Shown: piece after piece, positions 4,707-62,220 of the stretch | How positions within the stretch are numbered: position 1 is the first letter of the stretch | Layout: each line of letters begins with the position of its first letter | Notes under the pieces: model-generated | What the model saw: only the letters and a program-made list of their open reading frames with translations | Told to the model about the DNA's origin: nothing | The model's database searches: none | Virus record (IMG/VR): IMGVR_UViG_3300042691_036629 | Location: 53,500-117,499 of that record | Reading direction: 5' to 3' (one strand) | DNA length: 64,000 bases | DNA from: a virus | Taxonomy: Duplodnaviria > Heunggongvirae > Uroviricota > Caudoviricetes | Made by a program: the position numbers and the translations under genes

Positions 4707-4742
4707 TTTTTATTTGTATATTTACATAAATAAAAATTCACT

Positions 4743-4892: not shown

Positions 4893-5136
4893 AGGGACAG
4901 TGGCGACAACCAGTGTTACAACAAACTGGTCTTATTATCTTTAAGTATTCCTCGGTGAATACTCTCATTTTTATTCCATCTATTTCTTCCCAATAGAAGT
5001 CAACATCTTCTATAAGTTCGTCTGCTCTTAATCTTTTATTCTGACACATAATTTATATATTTTTTAATAAAAATTAGTTTTTAGAAAAATATTTTTAATA
5101 TATACTAAAAAATAGATTAAAAAATACATTATAATT

Positions 5137-13658: not shown

Positions 13659-15676
13659 GATATATAAAAGAATTTTTCAATTACATAAAAGAAGAATGGT
13701 CAAAGAATGAACCAATTCCAGAAATATTAGATAAAGAAAAAGGATTAGCTGTTTTCCTAATCGGTGCTCCCGGTATTGGAAAGTGCTTAGAATATAATAC
13801 ACCCATTTTAGTGAATAATAAAATGACTAAAATTGGTAAATTGATAGATAACTATAACACCGAATCAAAAATTGGTGAAATAAATATTCCTGTTAAAAAC
13901 TTATATGTTAAATCATTAAATGATAGTGGTGAGTTTGTGGAAAATGAGATTTCGAGTTTATATAGAGGCTATTCAGAAAAGTTAATAAATATAAAAACAC
14001 AAACGGGTGTTGATATAAAAGTTACACCTATACACCCATTATTAGTTTTAGAAAAAAACGGTGATATTATTTGGAAAAAATCATCAGAAATAACAATAGA
14101 TGATAAGTTAGCCAGACCTAGAATAATAAATAACACTTTTAATAATAAATCAAAAATAAGTAATGAATTATCAAGGATTATTGGTTATTCGTTAAGTGAT
14201 GGTAATTTTATAAAAAATAAAAATAGTAAATTTCTAACACTAACAAATATAGATATTGATATAATAGATGATTTTAGAAAATGTGTCGAAAAAGAAAATA
14301 AAATATTAACAGTAAAATCTAAAAAAATAAGACATAGTGTTCAATATTCAGATGATATTAAATTAGGAAATCGAAGATTTAAAAAAGATAAATATGATTT
14401 TATTTCAAATATTTCTGAAATATGTGGTGATTATATTTTTGGCAACAAATCACATAAAGTTAGAATTCCGGATGATATAATATCAAACAGTGAATCATTA
14501 AAACATTTCTTAGGTAGTTATTTATCTTGTGATGGTTCTGTATTTGAAAATAGAGTTGAATATTACACATCGTCATATGAAATGGCTACTGATTTATCTT
14601 ATGCACTTTTAATGTTTAATTTATTATTATAAATTAATTCCACCATGTCATCATTTGGTATAAATCCACCAATATTTGTATTAGTTTTTTCAATTGGTTT
14701 AATTTTTTTTCTACTACATCTAATATATTTATTTAATATTTCTCCAAATAAATTAAAATCATCACTTGTTACCCTGACTATATATGATAAAAAATCCTTA
14801 TTATTTAAATTTGTTTTTTTATTTTTTATTACCGAATTTATACCAGAAGATGAAACTGGATATAGATTTACTAGAAGTTATAAATATAGAAGAGTAATAA
14901 CGAAAAAACGTTTTAATAAAATATGTAATTTTTTAAATGAGAATAATGTTTATATACCAGAAACATATATTAATCATCACAATAACTTATTTTTTGATAA
15001 AATAACTAATATATCAACAATAGAACATAATGATTATGTTTATGATATAGTCTTAGATAAACATCATAACTTCATAGGTGGTAACTTACCAACAATACTA
15101 CATAATTCACACTTTGTGAATAATTATTTACATACAAAAAATACAAACATTAAAGACTTCTCAACTGATGATATTTCACTTCTTTACACAAAAGATCCAA
15201 ATGTTTATTATAAAGGAAAAGAAAAAGAAGAAGGTGGTAGAACAAAAAATGCGTCTGAATTAAACTTAATGAAGATGAAAGGTTTTATGAAAACTGGTCA
15301 AAACTTTATCTATGATACAACCGGTGCTGGTAAAGAATATACTGATACTGGTTATGAACACATTAAGGATATATTTGATTTAGCAAGAGAGAATGGATAT
15401 GAAATAGTTTTTATTCACTTATTATCTACATTAGAAACATCAATTGAACAAGATAAATTAAGATCGAGACACGTTGATCCACACTATATTAAATGGGCTT
15501 ATGCCAAACAAATGGGTGGTGAAGTGGATGGTGTTAAGGTAACTGGTAATATGAAAAGATATAAGGAATTAGGACCAGATAAATATTATGTTATAACTTC
15601 TATTGATAAAAAATATAAGTTTTATAAATTAGAAGGAGATAAACTTCTTAAAAGAAAAAATGATAAATGGGTTTAA
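13655..15676 (+). pseudogene. P-loop NTPase gene carrying a LAGLIDADG intein, interrupted by in-frame TAA at 14630-14632
   Basis: N-extein ends LIGAPGIGK and C-extein begins SHFVNNYLH, so the spliced Walker A is GAPGIGKS. The two track ORFs (13655..14632 and 14645..15676) are in the same frame, separated by a single ochre codon. Confidence 0.5.
13784..15106 (+). mobile_element. intein (Hint plus LAGLIDADG endonuclease domain) in Walker A motif
   Basis: Starts CLEYNTPIL and ends VYDIVLDKHHNFIGGNLPTILHN before Ser. Two LAGLIDADG-like blocks: IIGYSLSDGNF and LGSYLSCDGSV. Confidence 0.7.
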
Positions 15677-24966: not shown

Positions 24967-25950
24967 TTATTCCAAAACATTTTTGTTGAAAATTTCAGTA
25001 CTCCATTTTTTATAAACTCTACTATCTATATTATCATTTAATATTTTACTCTCCATGATATATGATTCATATAAAGACATTTCCTTTTCAAATAAAATCT
25101 CAACATCTTTTATAAAACCTTTAGATTTACTCTTCAATGACTTTATTCTACTTTCAACCGAAACTGTTGTTATTCCTATTTTATAATAATCACCATTATT
25201 TATTCTCAAATAATATAATTTAGATTTTTTATCCTTTAATTCTGGTTTATCTTCAAATAATTTCTCAGTGTAACCACCAACTAAAATATTATTAAAAACC
25301 ATATTCTTAATTTTACACTCAAAACAATATTGACCGCTTTGGTGTTTTTGAACACTCTTAACAAATAGCCCATGATCCGGACAAATTATATCTATTTTCG
25401 ACCTCTTGTTAATATAAGTATCTCTATTATATTCAGGATAAATATATTTATCATTATAAATATTTGATAATTTTTCTATAACATCATCATAGGTTTGTGT
25501 TTTATTGAGTACTCTATTATCATTAGCACATAATTTACACCCATAGGTGTTATTACTTAATAAATGTATATTCGGTTTTGTATAAAAATCACCATGTTCT
25601 GAACAAGTTATTTTTATATAATCACCAACAAACCCATTGTAGTTTGATAAATCGTATTTGAATTTATCACCAAACTTCTCATAACATCTACCCAAGAACT
25701 CATCTTTTGAAATGATATTTGGACCCTTTACATAATCTCTTTTTATTTTCTTTTTTTCAATTTCCCAACATAATTTACATCCATATTTTGAACGTAAATG
25801 CTTATCAGGTGTTTGAAAAAAATCTTTATGTACTGGGCATATGATTATAGATTTAGTTTTAGCATTCACATAATTAAACTTACTATAATCAAATTTATTA
25901 CCAAATTTAACTATCGATTTTTTTATAAATTCTTCTAACATAAGTATCAC
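24967..25950 (-). CDS. Zn-finger repeat protein with C-terminal GIY-YIG-like/T5orf172-like domain (putative homing endonuclease)
   Basis: Three CPxHGxF...GCKLC-type units, then YYLRINNGDYYKIGITT. Confidence 0.45.
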   Translation of the reverse strand: MILMLEEFIKKSIVKFGNKFDYSKFNYVNAKTKSIIICPVHKDFFQTPDKHLRSKYGCKLCWEIEKKKIKRDYVKGPNIISKDEFLGRCYEKFGDKFKYDLSNYNGFVGDYIKITCSEHGDFYTKPNIHLLSNNTYGCKLCANDNRVLNKTQTYDDVIEKLSNIYNDKYIYPEYNRDTYINKRSKIDIICPDHGLFVKSVQKHQSGQYCFECKIKNMVFNNILVGGYTEKLFEDKPELKDKKSKLYYLRINNGDYYKIGITTVSVESRIKSLKSKSKGFIKDVEILFEKEMSLYESYIMESKILNDNIDSRVYKKWSTEIFNKNVLE

Positions 25951-26849: not shown

Positions 26850-27623
26850 TTATATAATACTTTTATAATCAATCAATTCTAAATTATTTAGAACATAATA
26901 GTCATACTTACTATTAGTAGTAAATATCTTATCATAACACTCAAGACTTGTATTTGGATCTTGAATAGTCATATGACTAACTGCTAAGTATATCTTACCA
27001 ACATTTCTCTCCTTTAACATATTCAATAGACCTATAAATGTACCACCCTTTACACATAAATCATCCAATACTAATATATCTCTACCACCAAAATCAGAAC
27101 AATCAATAACTTGCTTCAAATCATGTGTTTTTAAATCTCTAGACTTACTAGCACAATAAACATCACCATTAAATCCTATTTTATCAACTAATTTATTTAT
27201 CCATTTAAATGAACCAGCATCTGTTGAAAATAATATTGGATTAGAATCAATTCTACTTAAAACACTTGATATAAATTTAGAATTATCAACAACTCTAATA
27301 TTATTCAATCCCATTTGAGTGGAATCAGAATGTGGATGGAAAACATAAACTTTACTAAAATTACATGAGTTGATAAAGTCACAAACTATCTTTAGTTCAA
27401 ATGATTGATTATCAAAAAATCTACGGTCATGTTGCTGTTGAAACATACATGGTATAAATAACTCAACATCTTTAATTCCATTAAAATCACAAACCTCTTT
27501 GATGGATTTTATGAAAAAAAGGTCCTCATATGAATTTATTCTTTCGGTTATTATAGGTTCACTAAAATCCTCTACTTCAACATAAAAGCTACCATCCGGA
27601 TATTTCTTTTTTAAATATTTCAT
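26850..27623 (-). CDS. ribose-phosphate pyrophosphokinase (Prs)-like protein (possibly Adps-type)
   Basis: PCMFQQQHDRRF aligns to PYfgYaRQDRK. ILVLDDLCVKGGTF resembles the PRPP-binding loop. At 257 aa it is shorter than canonical Prs. Confidence 0.6.
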   Translation of the reverse strand: MKYLKKKYPDGSFYVEVEDFSEPIITERINSYEDLFFIKSIKEVCDFNGIKDVELFIPCMFQQQHDRRFFDNQSFELKIVCDFINSCNFSKVYVFHPHSDSTQMGLNNIRVVDNSKFISSVLSRIDSNPILFSTDAGSFKWINKLVDKIGFNGDVYCASKSRDLKTHDLKQVIDCSDFGGRDILVLDDLCVKGGTFIGLLNMLKERNVGKIYLAVSHMTIQDPNTSLECYDKIFTTNSKYDYYVLNNLELIDYKSII

Positions 27624-28408
27624 AATAATTCTTCTTTAAATAAAACTGACTCTTTTAATCTTCTCAATAATTTATACTTTATTCCTAAAACTCTACTAAT
27701 CCTAAGTAAAGGAACTTTATTATACAATAAATCCTTTATCTCATCAACCCTATCTAAAATAGATCCCATCTCACATTTATCACCATGCCATCTATTATAA
27801 TTAGCAGAGTCACACTCAACATTACAAATATAACAAATTTTTTTATTTTCTTCTATACCCTTTTTTATTTTTTCAATCTCATCATTGGATAATTCTCTAT
27901 TCTTATTCCAAGGTATTTTTCCCTTACCTGCTTCTGATATTTTTTTTCTATGTTCATCTGAAAAAGTTCGACCAGAATGTGATTTATTTCCAAATCTAGC
28001 TTTTATTAAATTTTTCTTCCACTCACCATCAATTACTTTACCAATGTGTGATTTAGATGCCTTCTTCCTAGACTCTTCACTCCAAACTCTTTTTATTTGA
28101 CCATCACCACCATCTGTCATATTTACTAAATTACCTAAACCTAGATCCTTTCTACCATAAAATAAAATCAGATTTTTTTCTAGACTTTTCACATATTCAT
28201 AATCATCGGTCTCACATACTATCTCAATTGAATAATCATCATTCAATAAAGAAACTGTATTTAACCAATGTTTATTTCTCCTTTTTTTATTAAAAGCCCT
28301 ACTATACTTATTATAAGTTATATCAGATTTATTTTTTGTCCCTATACCAATATAGAAAATGATATTACTATCATTTCTTATATGTTTATATAAATAATGT
28401 TTTCCCAT
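27620..28408 (-). CDS. GIY-YIG homing endonuclease
   Basis: HYLYKHIRNDSNIIFYIGIG...R...E, followed by basic repeat tracts. Confidence 0.55.
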   Translation of the reverse strand: MGKHYLYKHIRNDSNIIFYIGIGTKNKSDITYNKYSRAFNKKRRNKHWLNTVSLLNDDYSIEIVCETDDYEYVKSLEKNLILFYGRKDLGLGNLVNMTDGGDGQIKRVWSEESRKKASKSHIGKVIDGEWKKNLIKARFGNKSHSGRTFSDEHRKKISEAGKGKIPWNKNRELSNDEIEKIKKGIEENKKICYICNVECDSANYNRWHGDKCEMGSILDRVDEIKDLLYNKVPLLRISRVLGIKYKLLRRLKESVLFKEELL

Positions 28409-44042: not shown

Positions 44043-44768
44043 TTAAATTGGTAGATTAACTTTATTTAAAAGTTGATTAGAAACGTGTGTATATATCTCT
44101 GTTGTTTTGGTGGATGAGTGACCTGCTATTTTCTGTATTATTCTTAGATCTGTTCCATTTTCTAAGAGGTTGGTAAAGGCTGAGTGTCTGAGGGTATGTA
44201 TAGATGAATTTTCATCAATATATTTTTTATAGATATTTTGACAGGATTGTATTGAATATTTGTTTGTGGATTGACCATTAAAAAGATATTCTTTTGGTGT
44301 ATATTTTTCTGAATATATTTTTATTAGATTTTGTACGTTTTCTGAAAGTGGTACAATTCTATCTTTTTTACCTTTAGCATTTTTAATATGAATAATCATT
44401 CTTTTGGAGTCAATATCTTCTATTTTAAGATTTATTATTTCGGAAACTCTTAAACCAACTGAATAGGTTAAAGTAAGTATAGTTTTATGCTTAAGGTTTT
44501 CTATTTTAGAAAGTTTAGATTTGATATAATCGCCTACATCATTTGTCCATTTTCCATTAAAAAACGCAGGTGTTTCAAATATAACATTAAACCCCTTATC
44601 AACAATGAAAAAATTCATAGTATCAGAAAATACACCCCAAAAAAATCCATTAGAATCTTTAGTGTTATCATCTATTATATCTCCAATAGTTTTACTCTCA
44701 CTAACATCAGATATATTCAAGTTTTCTTTAAACTCTTCGAAACTTTGTATGTTATTTTTACCTTTCAT
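44043..44768 (-). CDS. tyrosine recombinase catalytic domain with non-canonical N-terminus (truncated/chimeric integrase)
   Basis: Catalytic motifs GLRVSE (box I Arg), HTLRHSAF (HxxR) and GHSSTKTTEIYTHV (Tyr). The N-terminal about 70 aa are unrelated to a core-binding domain and are shared with the neighbouring gene. Confidence 0.65.
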   Translation of the reverse strand: MKGKNNIQSFEEFKENLNISDVSESKTIGDIIDDNTKDSNGFFWGVFSDTMNFFIVDKGFNVIFETPAFFNGKWTNDVGDYIKSKLSKIENLKHKTILTLTYSVGLRVSEIINLKIEDIDSKRMIIHIKNAKGKKDRIVPLSENVQNLIKIYSEKYTPKEYLFNGQSTNKYSIQSCQNIYKKYIDENSSIHTLRHSAFTNLLENGTDLRIIQKIAGHSSTKTTEIYTHVSNQLLNKVNLPI

Positions 44769-44830
44769 CTTTGTAAATTATTTTAGTTTATATATTAAAA
44801 AGAAAACCTAAATATATCTGTGACCGTTAG
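44694..44830. repeat. direct repeat unit copy 1 (5' coding end plus upstream region)
   Basis: ACTCTCACTAACATCAGATATATTCAAGTTTTCTT...TATATATTAAAAAGAAAACCTAAATATATCTG...CGTTAG, repeated at 45001-45140. Confidence 0.7.
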
Positions 44831-45075
44831 TGAGAATAGACTGGAATACATTTATCCATATCTATATCATCTAAAACTTGAATGTCACCTCTTTCTGCTT
44901 CTAAATCTTGTAGTGTAAAATATCCACCTTGTAGTTCTATATTGAGAATTCTGTATATTTTACCATTATATTCACATCTATCTGGAATCATATTCCATCT
45001 ACTCTCACTAACATCAGATATATTCAAGTTTTCTTCTGACTCGTTAAATCTTTTAAGGTGTGTTAATTTATTCAT
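44827..45075 (-). CDS. hypothetical protein sharing N-terminus with the integrase gene
   Basis: MNKLTHLKRFNESEENLNISDVSESR. Compare the integrase N-terminus MKGKNNIQSFEEFKENLNISDVSESK. Confidence 0.45.
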   Translation of the reverse strand: MNKLTHLKRFNESEENLNISDVSESRWNMIPDRCEYNGKIYRILNIELQGGYFTLQDLEAERGDIQVLDDIDMDKCIPVYSH

Positions 45076-45140
45076 AACTCGTTTATTATTTTTAAGTATA
45101 TATTAAAAAGAAAACCTAAATATATCTGAGTATCGTTAGA
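45001..45140. repeat. direct repeat unit copy 2
   Basis: Near-identical to 44694-44830. Confidence 0.7.
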
Positions 45141-45240
45141 TCACATTGAAACGCAATCTAACAAAGAATATTTATCATTGAAACGAAACATATTCTCAAC
45201 CGTTATATACAATAAAAATTTTACACCCTTCTTAAAAAAA

Positions 45241-45690
45241 TTAAAATTTTTTTGACATATAAAGAACACCTTGTCCAGTATTATGATAAATTTCAAATCC
45301 AAAACTCTTATATAAATTTACTGCAGGTTTATTATGTTCCATAACCTGTAAATCCACAATATCTACACTGTATCTTAAATATTCTAAAACTTTTTCCATT
45401 AATATTTTAGAATATCCTTTCTTTCTATATTGTTCTTTTATCATTAAATCCCACAAACTTATATGTGGTTGATTATTGAATTTATTATTTTTAATGACAT
45501 TACTAAACATTGTCCAACCTACCACTTCACCATCTTTCAACAATTCAAAACGATGTCCATCTATATTAGTTGAAAAATAATCTAATTTTTCAAGTTCTTC
45601 CCTAATAAACTCTCGTAGAGTTGTTTTTATTTTATGTTTCATATCTAATTTTAATTTTTTACCATCCCACATTTTTACGGTATATAACAA
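45241..45690 (-). CDS. GNAT-family N-acetyltransferase
   Basis: 149 aa with an acetyl-CoA-binding motif-A-like IKEQYRKKGYSKILM. Confidence 0.6.
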   Translation of the reverse strand: MLYTVKMWDGKKLKLDMKHKIKTTLREFIREELEKLDYFSTNIDGHRFELLKDGEVVGWTMFSNVIKNNKFNNQPHISLWDLMIKEQYRKKGYSKILMEKVLEYLRYSVDIVDLQVMEHNKPAVNLYKSFGFEIYHNTGQGVLYMSKKF

Positions 45691-45769
45691 GGTGTATATG
45701 CAAGTTTTTTATTAAGTCATAGTATATATTAAAGGTTAGAATTAAAAAACCTACATATACAACCAACCG

Positions 45770-46024
45770 TTAGTTCCAATATTTAATTTTATCAAAACTA
45801 TCTCTATGTTTATCACTTACCCAATACCAAAATTTACCATATTCAAGGTAGTTAAACATTGGTATTGCAATTAACATCATCAAAAAATATAAACCAAGTG
45901 CTATAAATCCACCTTTTACTAACCCAAAGTCAAGTGCAAAAAACGCATGAGATAATGGAAATGTAAGTGATAAACCACCTAATATTTTTAAATAAGAAAT
46001 CAAATCTGTTTTTTTCATAATCAT
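45770..46024 (-). CDS. small membrane protein
   Basis: 84 aa with two TM segments. Confidence 0.4.
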   Translation of the reverse strand: MIMKKTDLISYLKILGGLSLTFPLSHAFFALDFGLVKGGFIALGLYFLMMLIAIPMFNYLEYGKFWYWVSDKHRDSFDKIKYWN

Positions 46025-46434
46025 GAATTAAAATTAAATACTAAAACTAACAAAAAATATAAGCAATTATTTCATTACTTTCAAATAAAAGTTGTCTGTT
46101 AATAATTAAGTTCTGTGTTTCAATTTAAGTTTTCGTTAATAACTGCTTATATTCTCAACCGTTATGTGTAAGTTTTCTTAACATTAATTAAAAAAAGTGA
46201 AGTATATGTTAAAACCAAGTTCAGTTAAAACTACAAGTGCTAACAATATACATAACCACATAGTAATTAACATACTTCTATCACCTTTCCACAAAAAATC
46301 TATTTCTTCTATTATCTTTTTCATATTTATATTTTTTTAATTAACTAAAAACCTACACATAACAAATGATAAACAACATTAAAACGATAATTTATCATCA
46401 GACGTTATAAGTAATAAAATTGATGAAAGCTTCG

Positions 46435-46899
46435 CTATTTGAAATAAGTTTCAATAATATCAGATTTAGGTATCAGAACAAAACTATTTTCATCTGGATG
46501 ACTATTATATCCAATATCACTTAATTTACCAATTTTTATACCATTATTATTAATTAAATCATGAGTCTCATCAAAAGTATAATACCCATCTATACTTTTC
46601 AACTCATCTGGTATTATTTTACCAATTTCAAACCAAGTATCACCATTAAATTCGTTTTCAACTAATCCATATCCACAAGATAAAATACTACCATCTTTAA
46701 GTTTAGCAAACCAATACTGATTATTTAATTTAAAATCATTGTATATTTTTTCATAATCATATATAAACTCACAATTATCATTAGATAGTTTATAACACCT
46801 AAAAGCTCTCTGATACTCTAAATCACTCGTTGCTATTATTGAATTCTTTGAATTGACTAACCTCCAAACATCATCAACCTTAAATAATCTACCTTCCAT
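46435..46899 (-). CDS. hypothetical protein
   Basis: 154-aa ORF. Confidence 0.4.
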   Translation of the reverse strand: MEGRLFKVDDVWRLVNSKNSIIATSDLEYQRAFRCYKLSNDNCEFIYDYEKIYNDFKLNNQYWFAKLKDGSILSCGYGLVENEFNGDTWFEIGKIIPDELKSIDGYYTFDETHDLINNNGIKIGKLSDIGYNSHPDENSFVLIPKSDIIETYFK

Positions 46900-47130
46900 A
46901 ACTTATAAATTACCATTAAATAAACCTAATTCCCACATAACTATTGTGTCCTTTCATAGTGAGATATTTCTACAAATATAAATAAAAAATAACTACTTCT
47001 TACCGTTAGGTAAAAAAATTTTAATACATCTCATTTAATAAATCTATACCCTTGGTATAAACTATAACCTCTAACTCAGAAGAATGTTAGAAATCTTATC
47101 CAGTAATAAATTAATCTGTTTCATATTATT

Positions 47131-47472
47131 TTATAATTTAATCCCACATTCTATAAAGTCTTCTGACTTCATTACCTCTTTCAATTTGAAGTACATTTTA
47201 ATTTCATTGTAGGTTGCTTTCTCAATGAATTTAAGATAAGTTTCTAAGTTTTTGAATGTATCGTATGGTATGAATTCAAAATTACTAAAATCCCAATTAT
47301 CGTATTTATAACCGTGTCTCCAAGTTCTGGAAAACCAAACTGGTTTGTCATAAATAACTTTACCTGATAAGTATCTACTATATACTGATTCACCACCACC
47401 GATATAACCAGAAAGAAGTGTAAATCCGTCAAAGAAATATCCCTTTTTGTTTTTTAGATCAAATACATTCAT
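47131..47472 (-). CDS. hypothetical protein
   Basis: 113-aa ORF. Confidence 0.4.
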   Translation of the reverse strand: MNVFDLKNKKGYFFDGFTLLSGYIGGGESVYSRYLSGKVIYDKPVWFSRTWRHGYKYDNWDFSNFEFIPYDTFKNLETYLKFIEKATYNEIKMYFKLKEVMKSEDFIECGIKL

Positions 47473-47626
47473 ATATTTTCGTTTTGATTTAATAAATATA
47501 AGAACTCTATACGAATAATAAAAATAAATTATAGTGTAATGTGAACAATTTTACGTTTATAGAATTTGAATTAGTTTTGATTTAATTTGAATGGAACGAT
47601 TTCAAAGTCATACTTCACTTTTAGTT

Positions 47627-47656
47627 AATACTAAATTCCGCACACTTTTTAGTACC
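47627..47656. repeat. palindromic element copy 1 (ACTAAA-N-TTTAGT family, diverged)
   Basis: AATACTAAATTCCGCACACTTTTTAGTACC. Confidence 0.55.
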
Positions 47657-47667
47657 TTATTTTTCAA

Positions 47668-47697
47668 CATACTAAAATCCGGTCGTTTTTTAGTATA
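47668..47697. repeat. palindromic element copy 2
   Basis: CATACTAAAATCCGGTCGTTTTTTAGTATA. Confidence 0.55.
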
Positions 47698-47907
47698 TTT
47701 TTGTGTAAACTCTATCGCCATTTCATTTTCTCTACCAGTAGCCTTATTTTCAGCACCAATTTGTATATACACACCTCTCGGAAAGCCTTGACCTGCTTAC
47801 GTTTCCAGAGGGTCATTTTTCAGTAAAAAATCCACTGGGTTTTTACCTGGTTTTTAACAATTTTAATCGGTGATTTCGGGCGGCTCGGATCAATCAGAAC
47901 TAAAGAA

Positions 47908-47937
47908 GATACTAAAAAACGTGCGGATTTTAGTATC
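47908..47937. repeat. palindromic element copy 3
   Basis: GATACTAAAAAACGTGCGGATTTTAGTATC. Confidence 0.65.
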
Positions 47938-47956
47938 TTCTCTGAAGTTTAGTATA

Positions 47957-48029
47957 GGTCAGAAGGGACAGGATTCGAACCTTAATCTCTCTCTTAATGA
48001 GAGGCTCTTTCCAGTTGAGCTACCCACCT
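47957..48029 (-). tRNA. tRNA-like gene, anticodon loop AUUAAGA (possibly tRNA-Leu UAA), weak T-stem
   Basis: GGATTCGAACC on the plus strand, so the T-loop is read on minus. Acceptor stem AGGUGGG/CCCUUCU pairs 6 of 7. D-arm GCUC..GAGC. Anticodon stem CUCUC/GAGAG. Confidence 0.5.
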
Positions 48030-48039
48030 AACCTATTTT

Positions 48040-48459
48040 TTAATTTATTAGTGTTTCTAATTGGTAATCTCTTCTTAGTTGAGTTATTGTTCCTTCGAAA
48101 GTAGATTGGAAACGTGTGAATTTCCATTTAACATCGTTTAGGATTAGGAAGCCTGTTTTTGGGCATTTAGATTGAATTACTTTACCGTTTCTTGGTATGA
48201 TATGTTTATAGATTGCGTCTTTGTTTGTAACGATTATGATTGGTTTAGAGTAGTCGAAGTTATCGAATTGTTTAACGATTTCTGGTATTGATATACCTGT
48301 GTGGGTACCAACTTTGAATATTTGGATATTTTCTTTACCTAATATATCGGATAATTCGTTTGCGATTGCGTGTACGTTAAACTCGGTTGTTTTGATAACG
48401 TTTATTATTCCGATTTCTAATCCGATTATTTGTGATTTTATTATAGTGTCAAGGTTCAT
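48040..48459 (-). CDS. hypothetical protein
   Basis: 139-aa ORF. Confidence 0.4.
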   Translation of the reverse strand: MNLDTIIKSQIIGLEIGIINVIKTTEFNVHAIANELSDILGKENIQIFKVGTHTGISIPEIVKQFDNFDYSKPIIIVTNKDAIYKHIIPRNGKVIQSKCPKTGFLILNDVKWKFTRFQSTFEGTITQLRRDYQLETLIN

Positions 48460-48541
48460 ATCTCTTATTTTGTTTTAGTATTTTATACTCTCACTCTGTG
48501 AGTATAAAGATAATGATTTTATCTGTATATCACAAGCTAAT

Positions 48542-48569
48542 GATACTAAAATCCGCACGGATTTTAGTA
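48542..48569. repeat. palindromic element copy 4
   Basis: GATACTAAAATCCGCACGGATTTTAGTA. Confidence 0.65.
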
Positions 48570-48645
48570 GTTTCTTTAGAAACTCTAAACGAAGTTTAGT
48601 ACCTGAGTTAACGAAGGTTCACTATTTTTCCACGAAGTCAGAAAC

Positions 48646-48876
48646 CTATTTTTTCTCTTCGGGTATAATGAATAGTTCTTTGAGGCCTTCTATGGTACAA
48701 AGTCTTAATTGAGAGCTTCCATTCTCATTTATCCAGAACGCTGGACCTTCTAATCCGTACCAGTTTAGGACATCTTCCGATGCAATCTCTATTATTGTTG
48801 AAATAGTCCCTGAGTTTTTAGATGTGAATTCATCACCTTTCTTGTAATCTTTCATGATGTTTTTTATATTTAACAA
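48646..48876 (-). CDS. hypothetical protein
   Basis: 76-aa ORF. Confidence 0.4.
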   Translation of the reverse strand: MLNIKNIMKDYKKGDEFTSKNSGTISTIIEIASEDVLNWYGLEGPAFWINENGSSQLRLCTIEGLKELFIIPEEKK

Positions 48877-49172
48877 GCACTACTGACCGTTTCCGAATAG
48901 AGAGTTACGTCATAACCGTGAGAATAAAAATCACCCAACCCACCACTATCAATTACAAGTTTGTGGTCAAAATCGGGATGAATTACTACTACTTGCGTTC
49001 CATCATCTGTTTCGATATTATCCGTTGTTGCACCTATACAGTCAAGGAAATGTTGCATACTTTGGATGTTATCCATTTCCTGTATTGAATAGTCAATAAT
49101 GCGATAACTATTTTCGCCTTGTTCAAACATTTCCTTTACGGAGTTTGGTATTTCATAAATTACTGTTGCCAT
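48870..49172 (-). CDS. hypothetical protein
   Basis: 100-aa ORF. Confidence 0.4.
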   Translation of the reverse strand: MATVIYEIPNSVKEMFEQGENSYRIIDYSIQEMDNIQSMQHFLDCIGATTDNIETDDGTQVVVIHPDFDHKLVIDSGGLGDFYSHGYDVTLYSETVSSAC

Positions 49173-49312
49173 TGCTTTTGATTTTTATTTGTGTTTCAAA
49201 TTAAGTTCCTACTAAATTACCCGTGCCAGCGTATAACAGCGGTTTTGTGCAAGCTGCTCGACCGCTCAATGCCAAGGCTTCGTAGCCTAACACAAAACCG
49301 CAAAACGGGCCA

Positions 49313-49543
49313 TTAATACACCGACACCTTTTCGAGTGTGGCTTCTATATCTGACAACAATCCTTTTGCCCATAAATTAGGCTTAAATTGTCTTAAAATA
49401 TCTCTCATTTCAATCAAGTCACCTTGAGAAAATTCGATATTCACTATTGCTTCTTTGAGTGGTAAGAAGTCTGTTTCTTCTTCTGTGTGTTCGATAATTT
49501 TTTCTTCGTATCTCATTTTGTGAAATTTAACGGCACATAACAA
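49313..49543 (-). CDS. hypothetical protein
   Basis: 76-aa ORF. Confidence 0.4.
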   Translation of the reverse strand: MLCAVKFHKMRYEEKIIEHTEEETDFLPLKEAIVNIEFSQGDLIEMRDILRQFKPNLWAKGLLSDIEATLEKVSVY

Positions 49544-50067
49544 GGGCTTTGTGTAATAGCCCTATCAAGTGTCGTGGTTAATTTTAAGTTTCTACTAAGG
49601 ACTACTACGCAAAGCCCCGATACGTTAGTGTGCATTAGTAATACGACAAATAGTGTGTTCTATTTTAAAACCTTCGTATTTAGGTAGATTACTCCAATAC
49701 TCTAAACATTCGATAATAGGGTTGCCCTCAAGCCATTCTACTAATAAATAACGCACACTAACAGCATCTTGGCTCAATGCCTTAGTTTCATTGAAGGTTA
49801 GATATATTTGCCTCCTATTGGATTATGGAGATGGACGCTGATTAGGTTTGTATCTAACCTTTAAGATTATAATTCAATTACTTCATTACCGAATGATGTT
49901 GATACATTTAATTTTCTTTTATTGCAATTGTCACATTGGTGGACTTTGATATTTAGTTTTTTATCGTTTTGTACAAGTTCCCACTTGTGATTACAATCTT
50001 TATTGAATAGTTTTTTGAATAAGGTTATCATGGTTGTTTATTTTTAGTTTATACAAATATAAGAAAT

Positions 50068-50097
50068 AAATACTAAAAAACGTGCGGATTTTAGTAT
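50068..50097. repeat. palindromic element copy 5
   Basis: AATACTAAAAAACGTGCGGATTTTAGTATT, preceded by the shared TTTAGTTTATACAAATATAA leader. Confidence 0.65.
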
Positions 50098-50111
50098 TTT
50101 ATTAGTAAAAT

Positions 50112-50315
50112 TTAGATTATTCCAAGTTCATTTAACTTCTCTTCTCTTATTTCTTGTTGTGTTCTGAAAAAGTCTTTACCTATCAATTGCATATGACCTT
50201 CATCATCTATGATCCAATATTGGTGAGTTGAATGTGCGTTTACTTGGTAGGTCTTGCCTTTAGTTATTTTGTAAGTACCTTCAGCTATACATATAATATT
50301 CATTTGTTGGTCCAT
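50112..50315 (-). CDS. hypothetical small protein, ELGI-tail family
   Basis: Ends IREEKLNELGII. Its own ATG is preceded in the non-coding DNA by GAATTAGGAATATGG. Confidence 0.45.
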   Translation of the reverse strand: MDQQMNIICIAEGTYKITKGKTYQVNAHSTHQYWIIDDEGHMQLIGKDFFRTQQEIREEKLNELGII

Positions 50316-50328
50316 ATTCCTAATTCTT

Positions 50329-50622
50329 TTAGTTTATTACTTCTCCAATATTATCTATGATGAATTTATTTAAATCGTTAAATATTTCTTCTAAAATTTC
50401 ATCTGAAGTTAAATCGTTGATAAAATAACCATATAATAATTCACCATCAATTTTCAAATCACATAAATCAAAAGAAACACCATATATTTCTTCAATTTCT
50501 TCTTGTTTATTATAAAACAATTCTTTTGAATCATTAAATATTGAATCAAAAACAGTCTGTTCTATATTGTGGTCCAAGACTAATGTTTTATTTGTCTTGG
50601 GGTTAGTCAAATGTGTTTTCAT
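50329..50622 (-). CDS. hypothetical acidic protein
   Basis: 97-aa ORF. Confidence 0.4.
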   Translation of the reverse strand: MKTHLTNPKTNKTLVLDHNIEQTVFDSIFNDSKELFYNKQEEIEEIYGVSFDLCDLKIDGELLYGYFINDLTSDEILEEIFNDLNKFIIDNIGEVIN

Positions 50623-50657
50623 TTTAATAAAATAATTTTACCTACATTAAATCTTGA

Positions 50658-50936
50658 TTACATATTCCCGGTTACTGCCAATATACCTACTATTATTGAC
50701 CATAACAACAGAGCTGACGCTGGTATCACGAAAAGGGTGTAGATTAGTACGCGGTCCTGAATGTATCGTCTCTTTATGGTGGAGTGGTCTTCCAGGTATG
50801 CCTGTCCCTCTTCTTTGCTACTGACGAGGAATAGGTAATCCCATTCACCTTTTTTATTTTTCTTGTATATAGCTGGGTGGCAGTCTCCTTCCCACATACG
50901 GAAAGTATCCATTTTATATTCTTCGGTAGTTTTCAT
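50658..50936 (-). CDS. hypothetical protein with C-terminal TM segment
   Basis: 92-aa ORF. Confidence 0.4.
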   Translation of the reverse strand: MKTTEEYKMDTFRMWEGDCHPAIYKKNKKGEWDYLFLVSSKEEGQAYLEDHSTIKRRYIQDRVLIYTLFVIPASALLLWSIIVGILAVTGNM

Positions 50937-50980
50937 AGGAACTTGTTTTGTAGAACAAATATACTAAACTTTGTTTAGAT

Positions 50981-51010
50981 TATACTAAAATCCGCACGTT
51001 TTTTAGTATT
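50981..51010. repeat. palindromic element copy 6
   Basis: TATACTAAAATCCGCACGTTTTTTAGTATT. Confidence 0.65.
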
Positions 51011-51209
51011 TTTCCTCAAAATTTAAAGGTTTTCTTTTTAGTTTACCTTTACTATTAATACTTTTATACAGAATAAAAGATACCAACATCCATAAAGATG
51101 TTACACCTAATTGCATTATTGGGTAATTTTTATCAATTCCATTTTGGTAATTATTCACAACTATAAATATTGCACAAACTATTATTAGTATTTTAAAAAA
51201 CTTTTCCAT
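51003..51209 (-). CDS. small membrane protein
   Basis: 68 aa with two TM segments. Its 3' end overlaps palindrome copy 6. Confidence 0.35.
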   Translation of the reverse strand: MEKFFKILIIVCAIFIVVNNYQNGIDKNYPIMQLGVTSLWMLVSFILYKSINSKGKLKRKPLNFEEKY

Positions 51210-51279
51210 TTCTATTTAATTTAGTATTAGTTTTAGCCATAACATTTAGTTTATACAAATATAAATAAAAATGAGACAA

Positions 51280-51309
51280 AATACTAAAATCCGCACGTTT
51301 TTTAGTATT
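51280..51309. repeat. palindromic element copy 7
   Basis: AATACTAAAATCCGCACGTTTTTTAGTATT with the same leader as copy 5. Confidence 0.65.
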
Positions 51310-51633
51310 TATTTGTTTTATTATTTATATAAGCAGGTTGGAGTTTACCCTCTACGTATTGGAGTTATACGGACCCGTCTTCGATGTTCTCATTGACATT
51401 ATAAAGATAGTCATTTTATATGACTCTCACAAGTGAGTAGGGTTTTTATTTCATAAAAACAACTTCTTATGGATTTAGTTTTTTATTCTTTTTAACCCAC
51501 TCTTTACCCCATATCATTTTACTTATCATTTTATTTGCATACTTTGGGTATTTAATTAATAACCAAAGTGTGGTAAAAAGAAAAAATGTGAATACCAATA
51601 ATCCTACTATAAGTATTATTTCTAATAAATCTA

Positions 51634-52065
51634 TCATATATTTAAAGTATTTAGTTTAGCGTTACGTATTTCTAAAGTTATATCATCACTATTATTAGTG
51701 AATATCATATTTAATTCATTTCTTGTGAATGATCTTCTTTTTCCAAAATCATCTATGATATAGAATCTTTCTTTCTTTTCATTCTTTTGTTTGCCTATTT
51801 TCTTTTTACGCATAGCGTTCCTTTTAGATAGGTAATCAAAATACTCATATGGACTTACATATCCATCATATTGATAGTGGAATGCTATCCAGTCATGATC
51901 ATTTGAGCCAATGATTTCGTGTGATTTCTTAGTCCCTGGTGAGTTATCTAATATAAGATACTCTTTACCTAAGGTGAACCCTTTAAATGACTTTATATTG
52001 AAGATACGTGTGTTAATCATTTGGTTTGTTTTTTGTTTCATTGACATGGTAAAGACCATTTTCAA
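51634..52065 (-). CDS. hypothetical protein, tail IRNAKLNTLNI
   Basis: 143-aa ORF. Confidence 0.4.
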   Translation of the reverse strand: MKMVFTMSMKQKTNQMINTRIFNIKSFKGFTLGKEYLILDNSPGTKKSHEIIGSNDHDWIAFHYQYDGYVSPYEYFDYLSKRNAMRKKKIGKQKNEKKERFYIIDDFGKRRSFTRNELNMIFTNNSDDITLEIRNAKLNTLNI

Positions 52066-52379
52066 AGTATTTCTCTTATTTTCTCATCCCTTATTATTTG
52101 GGTCATATGTTTATCTAAATATTCTTCAATTTTATTATCTAATGAACTATGTCTCTCAGAAGTATAGAAATTCATATTTTTATCACCTATTTCATAATTG
52201 ATAAGATATGACCATTTACCAAATACGAGTGTAAGTAGAATACTCTTTATTTTGATTTCACAATTACTATATGGCTTTGAAGAATAATGAATACCAGAAA
52301 CAGTAATATCCTGAATTAGTTCAATTATATCATCATGAACTTCTTCACCAATCTGAGTAAATTTTGGATTTTTAATCAT
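52062..52379 (-). CDS. hypothetical protein (start trimmed to internal Met to avoid 74-nt overlap)
   Basis: The track ORF runs to 52460. An ATG at 52379 gives MIKNPKFTQIGEE and clears the upstream gene. Confidence 0.35.
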   Translation of the reverse strand: MIKNPKFTQIGEEVHDDIIELIQDITVSGIHYSSKPYSNCEIKIKSILLTLVFGKWSYLINYEIGDKNMNFYTSERHSSLDNKIEEYLDKHMTQIIRDEKIREIL

Positions 52380-52386
52380 ATCTGAT

Positions 52387-52611
52387 TTACATCCATTGAT
52401 TTTTCTTCTTGAATGAAACGTAGGCACCACCATTATATTGGAAACCATCAGTATCAACATGGAAGCCTTCGTCTCTAAGGCGTTGTATGTTATTCTCTAA
52501 AAGGTTGCTATCAATAAGAACTTGAGATTTACCGGAAGAGAATTCTCTTTGTAGTTGTGATATTATCTTATTAAAGTTAATATCAGCTTTCATTTGGTCT
52601 GCTAAATTCAT
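52387..52611 (-). CDS. hypothetical protein
   Basis: 74-aa ORF. Confidence 0.4.
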   Translation of the reverse strand: MNLADQMKADINFNKIISQLQREFSSGKSQVLIDSNLLENNIQRLRDEGFHVDTDGFQYNGGAYVSFKKKNQWM

Positions 52612-52880
52612 TATTTCTCAGGTTTTAATAGTAAATAAGCAAGAATGTATATAACCATTCCAAAAAATGTATAAGCTAAGTATTCCATATATTTATGTTT
52701 TAGTTTGTTTAGTCTAGTTATTTGCCCAATAATCTGAATGATTTAGATTAGGGTTATTTGGTTTAGGAATTCTACCTAATTTGATTAGTTTATTCCATTG
52801 AAATCTCTCTGTATATTTCCCGATAAGGAAACTGGTGATTATTATTGGTATAAGAATAATTGCTATCATAGTTTATTTTT

Positions 52881-53066
52881 TTAAAAAGTCAAATTTGTAT
52901 TATATCTAACATCTACGCCATTTAATTCTATAATATCAGCAATAATAAATGACATATAATTATATTCACCATTTATATTGAATTTACCTTTATGTACATC
53001 AATTTCATTTATAGTCTCTTTAAAGCCGTTTAATAACTTAACACTATCACCTTTTCTTACTTTCAT
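52881..53066 (-). CDS. hypothetical small protein
   Basis: 61-aa ORF with a KGDSV beta-barrel-like start. Confidence 0.35.
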   Translation of the reverse strand: MKVRKGDSVKLLNGFKETINEIDVHKGKFNINGEYNYMSFIIADIIELNGVDVRYNTNLTF

Positions 53067-53078
53067 ATGTATTATATT

Positions 53079-53435
53079 TTAATCTATCAATATAATTGAT
53101 TTTTGTTTCGCCTTTGATTTAACTCCTTCTAAGTTAGGATCTTTATGTGAATAACTAAACCCTTCATCATCGATACATTGGTATAATTCTCCTAAACCCC
53201 ATGTAGATAAATCTCTTTCTGTGGCATATCTTTCAACTTCATCTTTAACGTTAGATAGATCAAACCAGCATTGTTTACCATCTTTAATTAGTTTTCTTTC
53301 TGAAATAACATCAAAATTATCACGATTTAATATTCTGAATGATTTAAACCCAAAGTCCCATGAAACATAAGCTTTTAGATAATTTTGTTTATCTTCTTTG
53401 GGTCTTAACTTTTTTCTAGCTTTCTTAGATGCCAT
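53079..53435 (-). CDS. hypothetical basic protein
   Basis: 118-aa ORF. Confidence 0.4.
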   Translation of the reverse strand: MASKKARKKLRPKEDKQNYLKAYVSWDFGFKSFRILNRDNFDVISERKLIKDGKQCWFDLSNVKDEVERYATERDLSTWGLGELYQCIDDEGFSYSHKDPNLEGVKSKAKQKSIILID

Positions 53436-53445
53436 ATCTTATAAT

Positions 53446-53679
53446 TTAAAAAATTTCAAGGAATTTTTCAAAATCATTATCCGGCATTTCATCAAGTAGT
53501 TCGGATAATGTAATTGAATGTGCTTTGGTTTTAGAACAACTCATAGGTACTAATGTTGCAAATTCAACTATATCAGATTCAACATCGATGAAGTTTACCA
53601 TTTGGCAATCTTCAGTATAGAAACCAAGAGTTCCACAAAAATCGGGAAATTGAGATTTGAATATTTCGGACTTTGTCAT
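53446..53679 (-). CDS. hypothetical protein
   Basis: 77-aa ORF. Confidence 0.4.
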   Translation of the reverse strand: MTKSEIFKSQFPDFCGTLGFYTEDCQMVNFIDVESDIVEFATLVPMSCSKTKAHSITLSELLDEMPDNDFEKFLEIF

Positions 53680-53770
53680 ATAATAAAATTATTATTAACA
53701 AAGATAAGCATTTTATCTGGATTTCACAAGCTCAGGTATACTAAACTTAGTTTAGATTTTTACGTAGTAA

Positions 53771-53800
53771 AATACTAAAAAACGTGCGGATTTTAGTATT
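53771..53800. repeat. palindromic element copy 8
   Basis: AATACTAAAAAACGTGCGGATTTTAGTATT, preceded by the TTTATCTGGATTTCACAAGCT leader also seen at 48521. Confidence 0.65.
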
Positions 53801-53959
53801 TTCTGGACTTTTTCCAATTGTATCTTCTCTCATTGTAAATTACAAGAAAAATAGACCAAACTATAATCATTGGAAGTGACCAATAAAACCACAACATATA
53901 AAACATAAAAATATGTAGTATTAGTGAAATGGCTGGTGAATAAATTAATTTTTTCATCT

Positions 53960-57056: not shown

Positions 57057-57173
57057 AGCAGGTTGGAGTTTAATAGTAATATGATACCAGAAAATAATGA
57101 TGAAGAATAATGAAATATCTATCATTTCAAAATTCTTTTCAAAGAAAAATATATAAATAAAATATTATCAATT

Positions 57174-61369: not shown

Positions 61370-61371
61370 AG

Positions 61372-61537
61372 AAGTCAGAACAGGACTCGAACCTGTACAC
61401 ACTCGTTCCCGTTTATAGGGCCGCCTTGTCGATTGTACTTCTCGTGCGTCTACCAAATTAACATTGTCCCCGTAGTGGATTCTAACCACATTATTTTTAC
61501 AACTAGAACGGGGATGTTAATATTCCGCCACCTGACT
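61372..61537 (-). tRNA. class-II-like tRNA-like gene with about 65-nt structured insertion in the D-loop
   Basis: Acceptor stem AGUCAGG/UCUGACU is perfect. T-arm ACAGG-UUCGAGU-CCUGU. D-arm GCGGAAU[insert]UUGGUAGACGC. The insert (about 61457-61521) is flanked by the 8-bp inverted repeat ATTAACAT/ATGTTAAT plus CCCCGT/ACGGGG. Anticodon not resolved. Confidence 0.5.
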
Positions 61538-61594
61538 AACGAGGGTTTTAATCTGTTATACCCACAAACTTAATTTCATCTATGAAGTTACCCT

Positions 61595-61828: not shown

Positions 61829-61918
61829 TAGTCAGAAAAGGATTCGAACCTATATAAGCAAAATTTTCAGAATCAGTATCTGAGTCATCTAGCCGTCCTA
61901 CCATTAGACGATCTGACT
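61829..61918 (-). tRNA. tRNA-like gene, anticodon loop UACUGAU (CUG, Gln-like), non-canonical D region
   Basis: Acceptor stem AGUCAGA/UCUGACU is perfect. GGTTCGAATCC T-loop. Anticodon stem UCAGA/UCUGA is perfect. 90 nt long. Confidence 0.5.
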
Positions 61919-62073: not shown

Positions 62074-62167
62074 TAGAACCTCGTAGTCAGGACAGGACTC
62101 GAACCTGTATGAGAACCTTTCGATTTTACCTACATGGATTTACCTCTAATAACGTCTACCAATTCCG
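62074..62167 (-). tRNA. class-II (Leu-like) tRNA, anticodon unresolved
   Basis: Acceptor stem AGUCAGG/CCUGACU is perfect. D-arm GCGGAAUUGGUAGACGU. T-arm ACAGG-UUCGAGU-CCUGU. Variable arm AAUC-GAAA-GGUU. Same 5' half as the insertion-bearing gene. Confidence 0.6.
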
Positions 62168-62220
62168 CCACCTGACTAAAACAAATATAGTAATATTTTT
62201 ACAATAATCACCAAAATCTT

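Follow-up and report, generated by a model that had tools for sequence, protein, structure and literature searches.

A repeated 28-bp palindrome in the small-gene region of a large Bacteroidota phage resembles the promoter-early stem-loops of T4-like phages

The promoter-early stem-loop (PeSL) cassettes of T4-like phages (Arbiol et al., 2010, PMC2839356; Comeau et al., 2014, PMC4122927) are the closest known system to the repeat family presented here. In such a cassette a stem-loop terminator lies directly upstream of an early promoter; the cassettes occur in hyper-variable or hyperplastic regions, beside insertions and deletions, and those bracketed by two copies can be lost (PMC4122927). We analyzed 64 kb of a phage genome (IMG/VR record IMGVR_UViG_3300042691_036629, positions 53,500 to 117,499), of which the whole stretch is called the window in the following, and found that it carries eight copies of a palindrome of the form ATACTAAAA-N10-TTTTAGTAT, 28 bp per copy, termed element E. 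The best reading of this family is that of a PeSL-like terminator-promoter cassette stem-loop which is also a recombination hotspot. We assign this mechanism, a transcript-end hairpin combined with a hotspot of recombination, a probability of about 0.5.

According to this proposal, E would be the stem-loop half of a composite cassette that forms the end of one unit and the start of the next within an early, hyper-variable region of small genes. Either strand would read as an A-run, ATACTAAAA, a centre of 8–10 nt, TTTTAGTAT and a T-run, and the RNA would be expected to fold into an A/U stem of 9–11 bp with a small internal loop and, usually, a tetraloop closed by a C-G pair. Such a hairpin may define and protect the 3' end of the upstream gene, transfer RNA (tRNA) or small RNA and may insulate the upstream unit from a host-type TAnnTTTG promoter, usually 0–45 nt further on, while termination itself would probably be partial, weak or assisted by a factor. 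Since the element is a palindrome, it would work in both directions, so that the orientation of its centre would be immaterial. In addition, identical 28-bp copies at cassette borders could serve as crossover points, by which cassettes would be lost, gained or replaced and copies would homogenise each other. We favour a hairpin acting in both directions because E is positionally equivalent to ordinary terminators, is flanked by an A-run and a T-run and occurs between convergent genes.

An exact search of the window for ACTAAAA-N8-12-TTTTAGT returned seven sites, while 0.04 were expected from shuffled sequence and none of 100 shuffles reached seven. Allowing up to three mismatches to ATACTAAAA-N10-TTTTAGTAT added the eighth site at 47628, which has two mismatches; another match of this search, at 54311, was rejected as a compositional false hit. 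Thus, the eight palindromes listed by the initial annotation of this DNA are confirmed, its positions being correct to 1–3 nt. A check which that annotation had proposed, for copies inside open reading frames (ORFs) or elsewhere, found all eight to be extragenic and confined to 47.6–53.8 kb, with zero copies in the remaining 58 kb of the window. None lies in a credible ORF, even though greedy ORF calling covers 89% of the bases; E6 and E8 overlap ORFs by their final 7 nt only, where they supply the TAA stop. On the plus strand, the centre is TCCGCACGTT in E6 (50982) and E7 (51281) and its complement AACGTGCGGA in E3 (47909), E5 (50070) and E8 (53772), so both orientations of the centre, as described earlier, do occur. 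The remaining copies carry TCCGCACGGA, which is fully palindromic (E4, 48543), TCCGGTCGTT (E2, 47669) and TTCCGCACAC (E1, 47628). The previously described conserved CGTGCGG core accordingly holds for six of the eight copies, and the centre is more aptly described as one that varies but in most copies retains a C-N4-G pair. E1 (47628–47655, ATACTAAATTCCGCACACTTTTTAGTAC) is the downstream partner in a tandem pair and lies 13 nt from E2 (47669–47696), which abuts a plus-strand TATTTTTG box at 47696–47703; this pair is kept in the related contigs L038, L034, L103, L104, L096, L118 and others. Besides the eight copies, a decayed remnant of E is found at about 47816–47825.

The anatomy of the element was deduced from 119 distinct copies. 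Positions 2–9 of the arms TACTAAAA/TTTTAGTA and their partners are 98–100% invariant, the outermost pair alone varies (A-T 43, G-T 17, A-C 9, G-C 6) and almost no compensatory change is seen in the arms. The distance from ACTAAA to TTTAGT is equally fixed, with 12 nt in 124 of 127 cases. For the centre, at least 37 variants were counted, among which TCCGCACGTT is dominant and TCCGGTCGTT, ACTGTTGCTT and TATGTATCTT represent other classes; the C-N4-G pair is present in 42 of 70 copies. Once all copies are oriented alike, a consistent asymmetry becomes visible (A4-TC...TT-T4): the two inner positions, which are 81–87% conserved, face each other as mismatches (2x2) that are conserved and not repaired. 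The 6 nt ahead of the element are 56–79% A and positions +2 to +6 behind it 50–71% T, so that the full unit consists of A-run, element and T-run on either strand. A second type of hairpin with the same lower stem, which would have pointed to recognition of the folded form, was looked for and rejected, as full ACTAAA...TTTAGT pairs occur almost only at one spacing.

The family extends well beyond the window. E occurs in at least 118 metagenome contigs, mostly of freshwater origin by record name and with a G+C content of 28–35%, and many of them carry several copies (ten each in L038 and L103, eight in L034); contigs 97–100% identical to the window were recovered as well. Related loci yielded 258 relaxed matches, compared to 19 in shuffles. 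Of 203 copies there, 173 are extragenic by greedy ORF calling, even though such ORFs make up 83% of the bases, and most copies apparently inside ORFs fall into spurious ORFs over non-coding RNA. IMG/VR held no match to an element with the window's core, while a search there with the stems only delivered mostly unrelated matches and one related viral contig of 344 kb, L028, in which seven copies with the same arms and a CACGTG centre are found within 2.7 kb. The 185,579 bacterial and archaeal species genomes searched contain no E, all matches being chance hits or an unrelated repeat of Sulfurimonas; with zero copies there, E is not a repetitive extragenic palindromic (REP) sequence of the host, and a prophage origin was ruled out likewise. 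The unrelated repeat, GTCCCTGCCACTAAAACGGACGTGTTCGTTTTAGTGCGTAACATCAG, fits the search pattern and is abundant in Sulfurimonas and other Campylobacterota (L149–L210), where it looks like a REP-type sequence of Sulfurimonas. Rfam contained nothing for E or the neighbouring non-coding stretches at gathering and E-value thresholds, and no relevant publication was retrieved by a text search for the motif.

E is arranged in a directed manner relative to promoters. Between 47 and 62 kb, many of the gaps separating genes contain, on the minus strand (the gene strand), TATATTTG or TATCTTTG shortly before the start codon. Both conform to TAnnTTTG, which is the -7 box of the Bacteroidota primary sigma factor; in other parts of the window a TAATATATA-type motif precedes the genes instead. 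As TAnnTTTG is not enriched overall (114 versus 109 expected), its meaning rests on position and direction. Across loci, the exact boxes located no more than 40 nt from an element point away from it in 62 cases and toward it in 6. With the limit set at 70 nt, 68 of 122 elements are accompanied by a box on one side only, and a single element by boxes on both sides. In the window, five of the eight copies are followed by an exact or one-mismatch box, all on the minus strand. E5 (50070–50097) lies 14 nt past the stop of gene 50112–50315 and 8 nt ahead of TATATTTG at 50054–50061, which is part of the shared leader TTATATTTGTATAAACTAAA of gene 49867–50031. The same leader, with TATATTTG at 51256–51263, follows 17 nt after E7 (51281–51308) and precedes gene 51003–51209, and a further TATATTTG at 50956–50963 precedes gene 50658–50936, next to E6 (50982–51009). 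Gene 53446–53679 has the box TATCTTTG at 53699–53706 within a second shared leader, AGCTTGTGAnATnCAGATAAAATnnTTATCTTTG, with a -33 TTG 20 nt upstream, beyond which lies E8 (53772–53799); a near-match box, TATCTTTA, at 48505–48512 in a leader of the AGCTTGTGAnATnCAGATAAAATnnTTATCTTTG type lies between E4 (48543–48570) and gene 48040–48459. Both shared leaders had been noticed before, and on the gene strand both turn out to be promoters.

The spacing between element and promoter is not constant. E is usually found 0–45 nt upstream of the box, the full range is -1 to about 60 nt, and the distances cluster around 5–10, 15–20, 25–30 and 40–45 nt, each cluster reflecting another promoter module. The element is followed by three or more types of promoter, and some copies have no promoter after them. 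Consequently, the earlier idea of promoters that form a class with a hairpin attached does not hold, given the variable distance, the several promoter types and the promoterless or convergent copies, and a classical operator at a fixed place in the promoter, proposed alongside it, is unsupported on the grounds of the same distances and promoter types. For the same variability of distance, we rejected E as a promoter part at fixed spacing. An N4-type hairpin promoter and a nut-like antitermination site were dismissed from the anatomy, as E lies upstream of promoters and in both orientations; a CRISPR-like array was discarded as well, the copies being spaced by 41–2500 bp with genes in between.

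Small hairpins of the form CTAAAC-N3-GTTTAG accompany the elements. Three exact copies were detected, all within 30 nt of an element, while 0.19 would be expected: at 48585–48599 next to E4, at 50964–50978 between E6 and the -7 box and at 53741–53755 between E8 and its promoter. At many loci these hairpins, TTTCTAAAGAAA and the direct repeat GTTCAC-N3-GTTCAC form multi-hairpin modules beside the elements, and the direct repeat, which lies just upstream of some -7 boxes, could be the site of a regulator. A second intergenic module before genes, GTCYGATGATAAACAATCGTTTTAATGTTGTTTATCATTTGTT, is found with the related ACGGTTGAGAATAT...TTTTTAATATATA leaders at 44769–46434 (for example at 46360–46400). 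Of 80 related IMG/VR loci (L211–L290), 32 contain this GTCYGATGATAAACAATCGTTTTAATGTTGTTTATCATTTGTT-type module, with 57 occurrences in total and always in one orientation; it is probably a middle or late promoter class.

On its other side, E is associated with the ends of transcription units. Each copy in the window follows a gene stop, a tRNA or a conserved non-coding RNA. Across loci, a same-strand ORF of at least 50 codons ends within 70 nt upstream of 29 of 52 oriented copies, sometimes with its stop inside the arm, as in the window, where E6 and E8 give the TAA stops of genes 51003–51209 and 53793–53957, respectively. Other copies are situated between convergent gene ends, such as the one at position 2553 of L095, 4 and 5 nt away from two stops. 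The gene strand of the element-rich stretch contains no other canonical terminator. E3 (47909–47936) is found 23 nt 3' of the end of a tRNA-Leu(UAA) gene (47960–48029, minus strand), and the same order, with the element about 22 nt past the tRNA, recurs in L034.

E7 in turn follows a conserved small RNA, ncRNA-2 (51326–51397, minus strand; GUCAAUGAG...AUCGAAGACGGG...hairpin), which has its own -7 box TATCTTTA at 51402–51409. This RNA of about 70–100 nt has more than 20 homologous metagenome loci, sometimes two per contig, which fall into two subfamilies, and matches no Rfam family. It starts with GUCAAUGAG, a TAnnTTTG box lies 4–6 nt before GTCAATGAG, and the hairpin has a UAACUCCAA loop and two fully covarying pairs. 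At about 12 loci an element lies about 10–25 nt past its conserved 3' part, in either centre orientation and with several centre classes, and in L139 and one L095 copy a classical hairpin with a T-run replaces the element at this place. The 3' tail of ncRNA-2, AAACUCCAACCUGCU, recurs as a fragment at 57057–57076.

A second conserved and structured non-coding stretch, ncRNA-1 (47697–47908), extends from E2 to E3 and includes a covarying hairpin (47774–47812) followed by the remnant of E mentioned above. It is common to L028, L038, L034, L096, L118 and others and contains an invariant ATGTATATACA block. The cues for its strand conflict, with the plus-strand TATTTTTG box abutting E2 and a TAATATATA-like box on the other strand. 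Right after the covarying hairpin L096, L118 and L109 carry a full element and L038 and L034 a half element, whereas in the window only TTTTTCAGTA remains, after hairpin and T-run. The possibility that ncRNA-1 is instead an ORF of 34 amino acids (47712–47816) was rejected, as this frame appears to be closed in L028. The GC-richer intergenic stretches 49173–49312 and 49636–49866 fold no better than shuffles.

Comparison of close relatives links E to rearrangements. A cassette of a promoter and a gene for 68 amino acids (cassette 51010–51280, gene 51003–51209, minus strand) is bracketed by E6 and E7, which share orientation and centre. In L067 this cassette is missing: the left block of homology stops at E6, the right one begins at E7 and a single element is present, so that the two genomes differ as [E6-cassette-E7] versus [E]. 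E5 is a homology breakpoint relative to L067, L077 and L295, further breakpoints relative to these genomes lie at E7, at E8 or at elements that the window lacks, and a 424-bp insertion adjoins E8 in L295. Of 61 distinct breakpoints, 19 have an element of one or the other genome no more than 40 nt away; for gene ends, the share with an element of their own genome at this distance or less is 6.9%. Ends of contigs at elements were excluded as evidence because repeats break assemblies. Four different centres (TCCGTGCGGA, AACGTGCGGA, TCCGCACGTT and TCCGCGCGTT) occupy the E4 locus in genomes that are 97% identical or more, which shows flipping in place and "correction" toward the perfect palindrome. 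Template switching on a hairpin leaves such a signature. Among about ten relatives, no segment between elements of opposite orientation was found to be inverted.

The family, its placement, its link to promoters, its exchange with ordinary terminators and the breakpoints at E are thus observed, while we infer that transcription ends, or is processed, at E and in what way recombination happens there. As regards transcript ends, E can be compared with bidirectional intrinsic (factor-independent) terminators. Like E, they are palindromes with an A-run and a T-run, found where a gene, tRNA or small RNA ends and where convergent genes meet, and in some relatives ordinary terminators take the place of E. 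However, E has no stable G+C-rich stem but 1–3 G-C pairs and a large loop or internal loop, its T-run is interrupted by AGTAT and missing in about half of the copies, and it conserves sequence and not just structure. The predicted RNA fold, an A/U stem of 9–11 bp with a 2x2 internal loop and a tetraloop closed by C-G, reaches -7 to -12.6 kcal/mol, the latter for E4 with its palindromic centre; E1 is an exception, as its minimum-energy fold (-5 kcal/mol) is not this hairpin.

Several of our results weigh against a terminator hairpin. First, the stem is weak, as the initial annotation had already remarked of its AT-richness: ordinary terminators of the window reach -18.3 and -19.3 kcal/mol, and a simple terminator scan was passed by E4 alone and only on the plus strand. 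Second, T's directly behind the stem are enriched but not universal, being present in only about 44% of the copies (at least three T in the first 4 nt for 29 of 66, while about 9 would be expected by our own estimate from composition). Third, a plain hairpin would need neither invariant arms nor a fixed length nor a conserved mismatch inside the stem; for such uniform copies, either a protein reads the sequence or recombination among the copies is frequent. Fourth, when copies were oriented by their downstream promoter, arm mismatches displayed no significant G-U versus A-C asymmetry (17 versus 10, p = 0.25) and the apical pair even the opposite bias (1 versus 12), so there is no strand-specific sign of selection on RNA structure. 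Fifth, about 20 copies lie between divergent genes, according to crude ORF calls, where there is nothing to terminate; among these, L067 and L091 have a TAATATATA-type promoter on one side and an early-type promoter on the other. Moreover, in L108 the order is promoter, element, gene, with E in the 5' leader, and in L103 a replacement cassette of two small ORFs and an element precedes a gene without its own promoter, which must hence be transcribed through the element, as must the gene in L108. Finally, many mosaic breakpoints coincide with plain gene borders that have no element. Thus, with regard to recombination, E is a hotspot and not the sole route.

These points lead to the main rival, in which E acts as double-stranded DNA: a site for a sequence-specific dimeric protein of phage or host that reads the half-sites TACTAAAA at fixed spacing, leaves the centre uncontacted and serves as roadblock, insulator or repressor site of early cassettes. 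Such a protein would account for the near-invariance of arm positions 2–9 beside a variable centre, for the fixed spacing with almost no compensatory change and for the lack of a strand-asymmetric G-U signal, as well as for the copies in divergent promoter regions and in a 5' leader. It would also explain why the orientation of the centre is indifferent to transcription (18 versus 11 copies in the main class; relative to the downstream promoter, 30 in orientation F and 17 in R). Nevertheless, neither the unfixed position relative to the -7 box and the several promoter types nor the promoterless copies between convergent gene ends fit this explanation, and conserved A-run and T-run flanks and an exchange with ordinary terminators are unexpected of an operator. 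Furthermore, the centres of the half-sites are about 19–20 bp apart, which is long for a simple dimer, and no DNA-binding protein could be assigned among the neighbouring genes, where Pfam (30 small ORFs) and PHROGs (10 of them) revealed no candidate DNA- or RNA-binding protein. We therefore regard a dimeric-protein site as unlikely, although it is the strongest competitor of the transcript-end hairpin.

The element might also act in RNA without being a terminator, namely as a hairpin bound by an RNA-binding protein or nuclease, at which transcripts would be cleaved or stabilised. The tRNA and the two small RNAs flanked by E need precise ends, read-through is required where E sits within operons or a 5' leader, and the invariant lower stem could be the recognition feature. 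Against this stand the missing G-U versus A-C asymmetry and the copies placed where transcription is improbable, for instance between divergent promoters; a loop that occurs in both orientations of the centre would not be readable in RNA, and a stem of 9–11 bp is short for RNase III. In our view this explanation is very unlikely.

A further alternative concerns the way in which cassettes move. We attach a slim chance to the idea that E, instead of or besides being a transcript-end hairpin, is the recognition site of a sequence-specific phage factor moving gene cassettes, with an Xer-type recombinase as leading candidate. An ORF for a Xer-like tyrosine recombinase (44043–44768, minus strand; Pfam PF00589, 8.7e-35; XerA/XerD-like by NCBIfam and PDB sequence search) lies 2.9 kb from the elements. 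Its N-terminal domain is missing in the window and residues 79–241 alone match relatives, but L291, which equals the window except for 770 bp extra at 44534/44535 (L291 13925–14695), encodes an intact protein of 266 amino acids with a SAM-like N-domain. The deletion appears to lie between repeated segments of promoter and 5' gene part, 44665–44829 resembling 44954–45141. Formally, the 28 bp can be parsed as 11-6-11 (ATACTAAAATC-CGCACG-TTTTTTAGTAT), and the asymmetric inner arm positions give the site a polarity. If a cassette-moving factor exists, this dif-like asymmetric centre would set polarity and compatibility classes, the early region would be the phage counterpart of integron arrays or pdif modules, and freshwater Bacteroidota phages would possess a system devoted to the exchange of host-takeover genes, tRNAs and small RNAs among them.

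In its narrower form, this alternative makes E a dif/lox-like site, with 11-bp arms and a 6-bp centre, for site-specific excision and insertion of cassettes by the Xer-type recombinase of the phage. Length and parse agree with the dif/pdif modules of Acinetobacter plasmids (PMC6449649), in which sites in both orientations likewise flank shuffled small modules with a Xer-type gene nearby. Elements flank units of 1–3 genes, the [E-cassette-E]/[E] polymorphism lies between sites of the same orientation and centre, and for PeSLs, too, site-specific recombination was left open by the authors (PMC4122927). However, the conservation pattern is reversed: in dif/pdif sites the conserved palindrome is made up of the inner portions of the arms and variation is found in the outer ones (PMC6449649), while in E the outer positions 2–9 are 98–100% invariant and the inner two are variable and unpaired. 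Flanking sites of E are not consistently inverse in orientation, no inversions between opposite elements were seen in the relatives, and the tandem sites 13 nt apart and the A-run and T-run flanks would stay unexplained. The window has eight elements identical to those of L291 despite its truncated recombinase. In addition, 80 viral loci encode recombinases with 58–85% identity in the best segment, which is mostly the catalytic domain, and all of these loci lack E for 10 kb on either side. Thus, a dif-like site is highly improbable.

Finally, E could be a selfish or neutral palindromic repeat comparable to REP sequences or miniature inverted-repeat transposable elements, spread by recombination or hairpin-templated copying and without regulatory role. 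As in REP sequences and bacterial interspersed mosaic elements, a short, extragenic and imperfect palindrome is present in many copies and both orientations, sometimes in tandem clusters; decayed copies exist, the centre flips or becomes a perfect palindrome at one locus in genomes at least 97% identical, and related phages manage without E. REP sequences, moreover, may themselves have roles in transcript-end stabilisation and termination. In contrast to them, E is restricted to phages, with none in the 185,579 species genomes, and tightly coupled to promoters, and it has A-run and T-run flanks and no GTAG-type one. No REP-associated tyrosine transposase was seen, although the window's ORFs were not systematically scanned for Y1 transposases, nor was any other transposase seen nearby in a search that was not exhaustive. 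A repeat without function would hardly be expected to show the ordered placement after transcript ends and upstream of promoters (62 versus 6), the confinement to a cassette-type early region and the same position after the small RNA, after the tRNA and inside ncRNA-1 across divergent phages, where ordinary terminators can replace it. We consider the selfish repeat quite unlikely.

This leads back to a transcript-end hairpin with PeSL-like features, a likeness already put forward in the initial annotation and borne out here: both are stem-loops just upstream of host-type early promoters, among small and mostly orphan genes of a hyper-variable region, with copies beside insertions, deletions and replacements that delimit such differences between close relatives, and with a cassette between two copies that is present in one genome and absent from another. 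There are differences as well. The promoter following E is of the Bacteroidota type (TAnnTTTG), while that of a PeSL is of the sigma-70 type, and sigma-70-type promoters are not enriched in the window (56 versus 55.6 expected). E forms a module of its own, independent of any one promoter: its distance to the promoter varies, three or more promoter types are found next to it, and it also stands by itself, in tandem pairs or behind genes for tRNA and small RNA. Its 28 bp are AT-rich, form a weak stem, have a centre in both orientations and are near-invariant across many phages, while PeSL stems are short, contain G/C and vary more. Terminator activity has been assayed for PeSLs, whereas for E it is inferred from sequence and placement.

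Two other systems share fewer traits with E. The stoperators of mycobacteriophages are asymmetric 13-bp repressor sites of temperate phages with a fixed orientation to transcription. Stoperators and start-associated sequences are, like E, present as many copies of one short motif in intergenic gaps of phages and are thought to act in transcription, while E is palindromic and has neither an orientation preference nor a fixed position relative to the promoter. From the attC sites of integrons, of which each promoterless cassette has one in a fixed orientation to its ORF, E differs in that its cassettes carry their own promoters and that both orientations occur.

Concerning the source of the window, it is a large, uncultured freshwater phage of Bacteroidota. 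The G+C content is about 28%, and recognisable genes encode a prohead protease and enzymes of NAD salvage, for which Tenacibaculum phage PTm1 is the best phage match; homing endonucleases, intein-bearing genes and a protein with a type-IX-secretion sorting domain were found as well. INPHARED contains no phage that is similar at the DNA level. The phage may be related to T4, as hinted at by the PTm1 matches, the prohead protease and T4_baseplate and Gp51 domains on the related contig L292. E itself is confined to a hyper-variable region of small, mostly orphan genes: of the 30 ORFs in and around the element stretch, two (GNAT, 45241–45672; the recombinase, 44043–44768) match a Pfam family above the curated cut-off, and these lie below the element cluster; the other 28 are without such a match, and ten of the 30 compared with PHROGs had no match.

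Some further features of the window deserve mention. Two adjoining ORFs at 13655–15676 have intein-splicing and LAGLIDADG domains, and ORFs resembling homing endonucleases are also located at 24967–25950 and 27620–28408. Two tRNA-like genes of 90–94 nt (61829–61918 and 62084–62177, minus strand) were found by Rfam and missed by ARAGORN; in a third tRNA-like sequence (61370–61594) the D-loop region is seemingly interrupted by an insertion flanked by the inverted repeat ATTAACATCCCCGT...ACGGGGACAATGTTAAT. These three sequences may be tRNAs with unusual insertions. Contig L293 (JAVQID010115057.1) is identical to window positions 45093–53335 and then switches inside gene 53079–53435; past the switch, its positions 1–5100 carry genes typical of Bacteroidota cells (H+-pyrophosphatase, a BlaI-like regulator, PorP/SprF), which represents either a chimeric assembly or a phage-host junction.

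If our reading is right, the PeSL principle, in which repeated terminator-promoter modules organise early transcription and drive the shuffling of cassettes, would extend past the T4-like phages of enterobacteria and Vibrio to abundant uncultured freshwater phages of Bacteroidota, here with promoters adapted to the phylum. Found in at least 118 metagenome contigs, E is a sharp and searchable marker which delimits independently transcribed units and thereby helps to annotate orphan genes, tRNAs and two new families of small RNAs in these phages. With its invariant arms, fixed length and flipping centre, it is also a good test case for whether recombination alone keeps such repeats uniform or a protein that recognises them does so.

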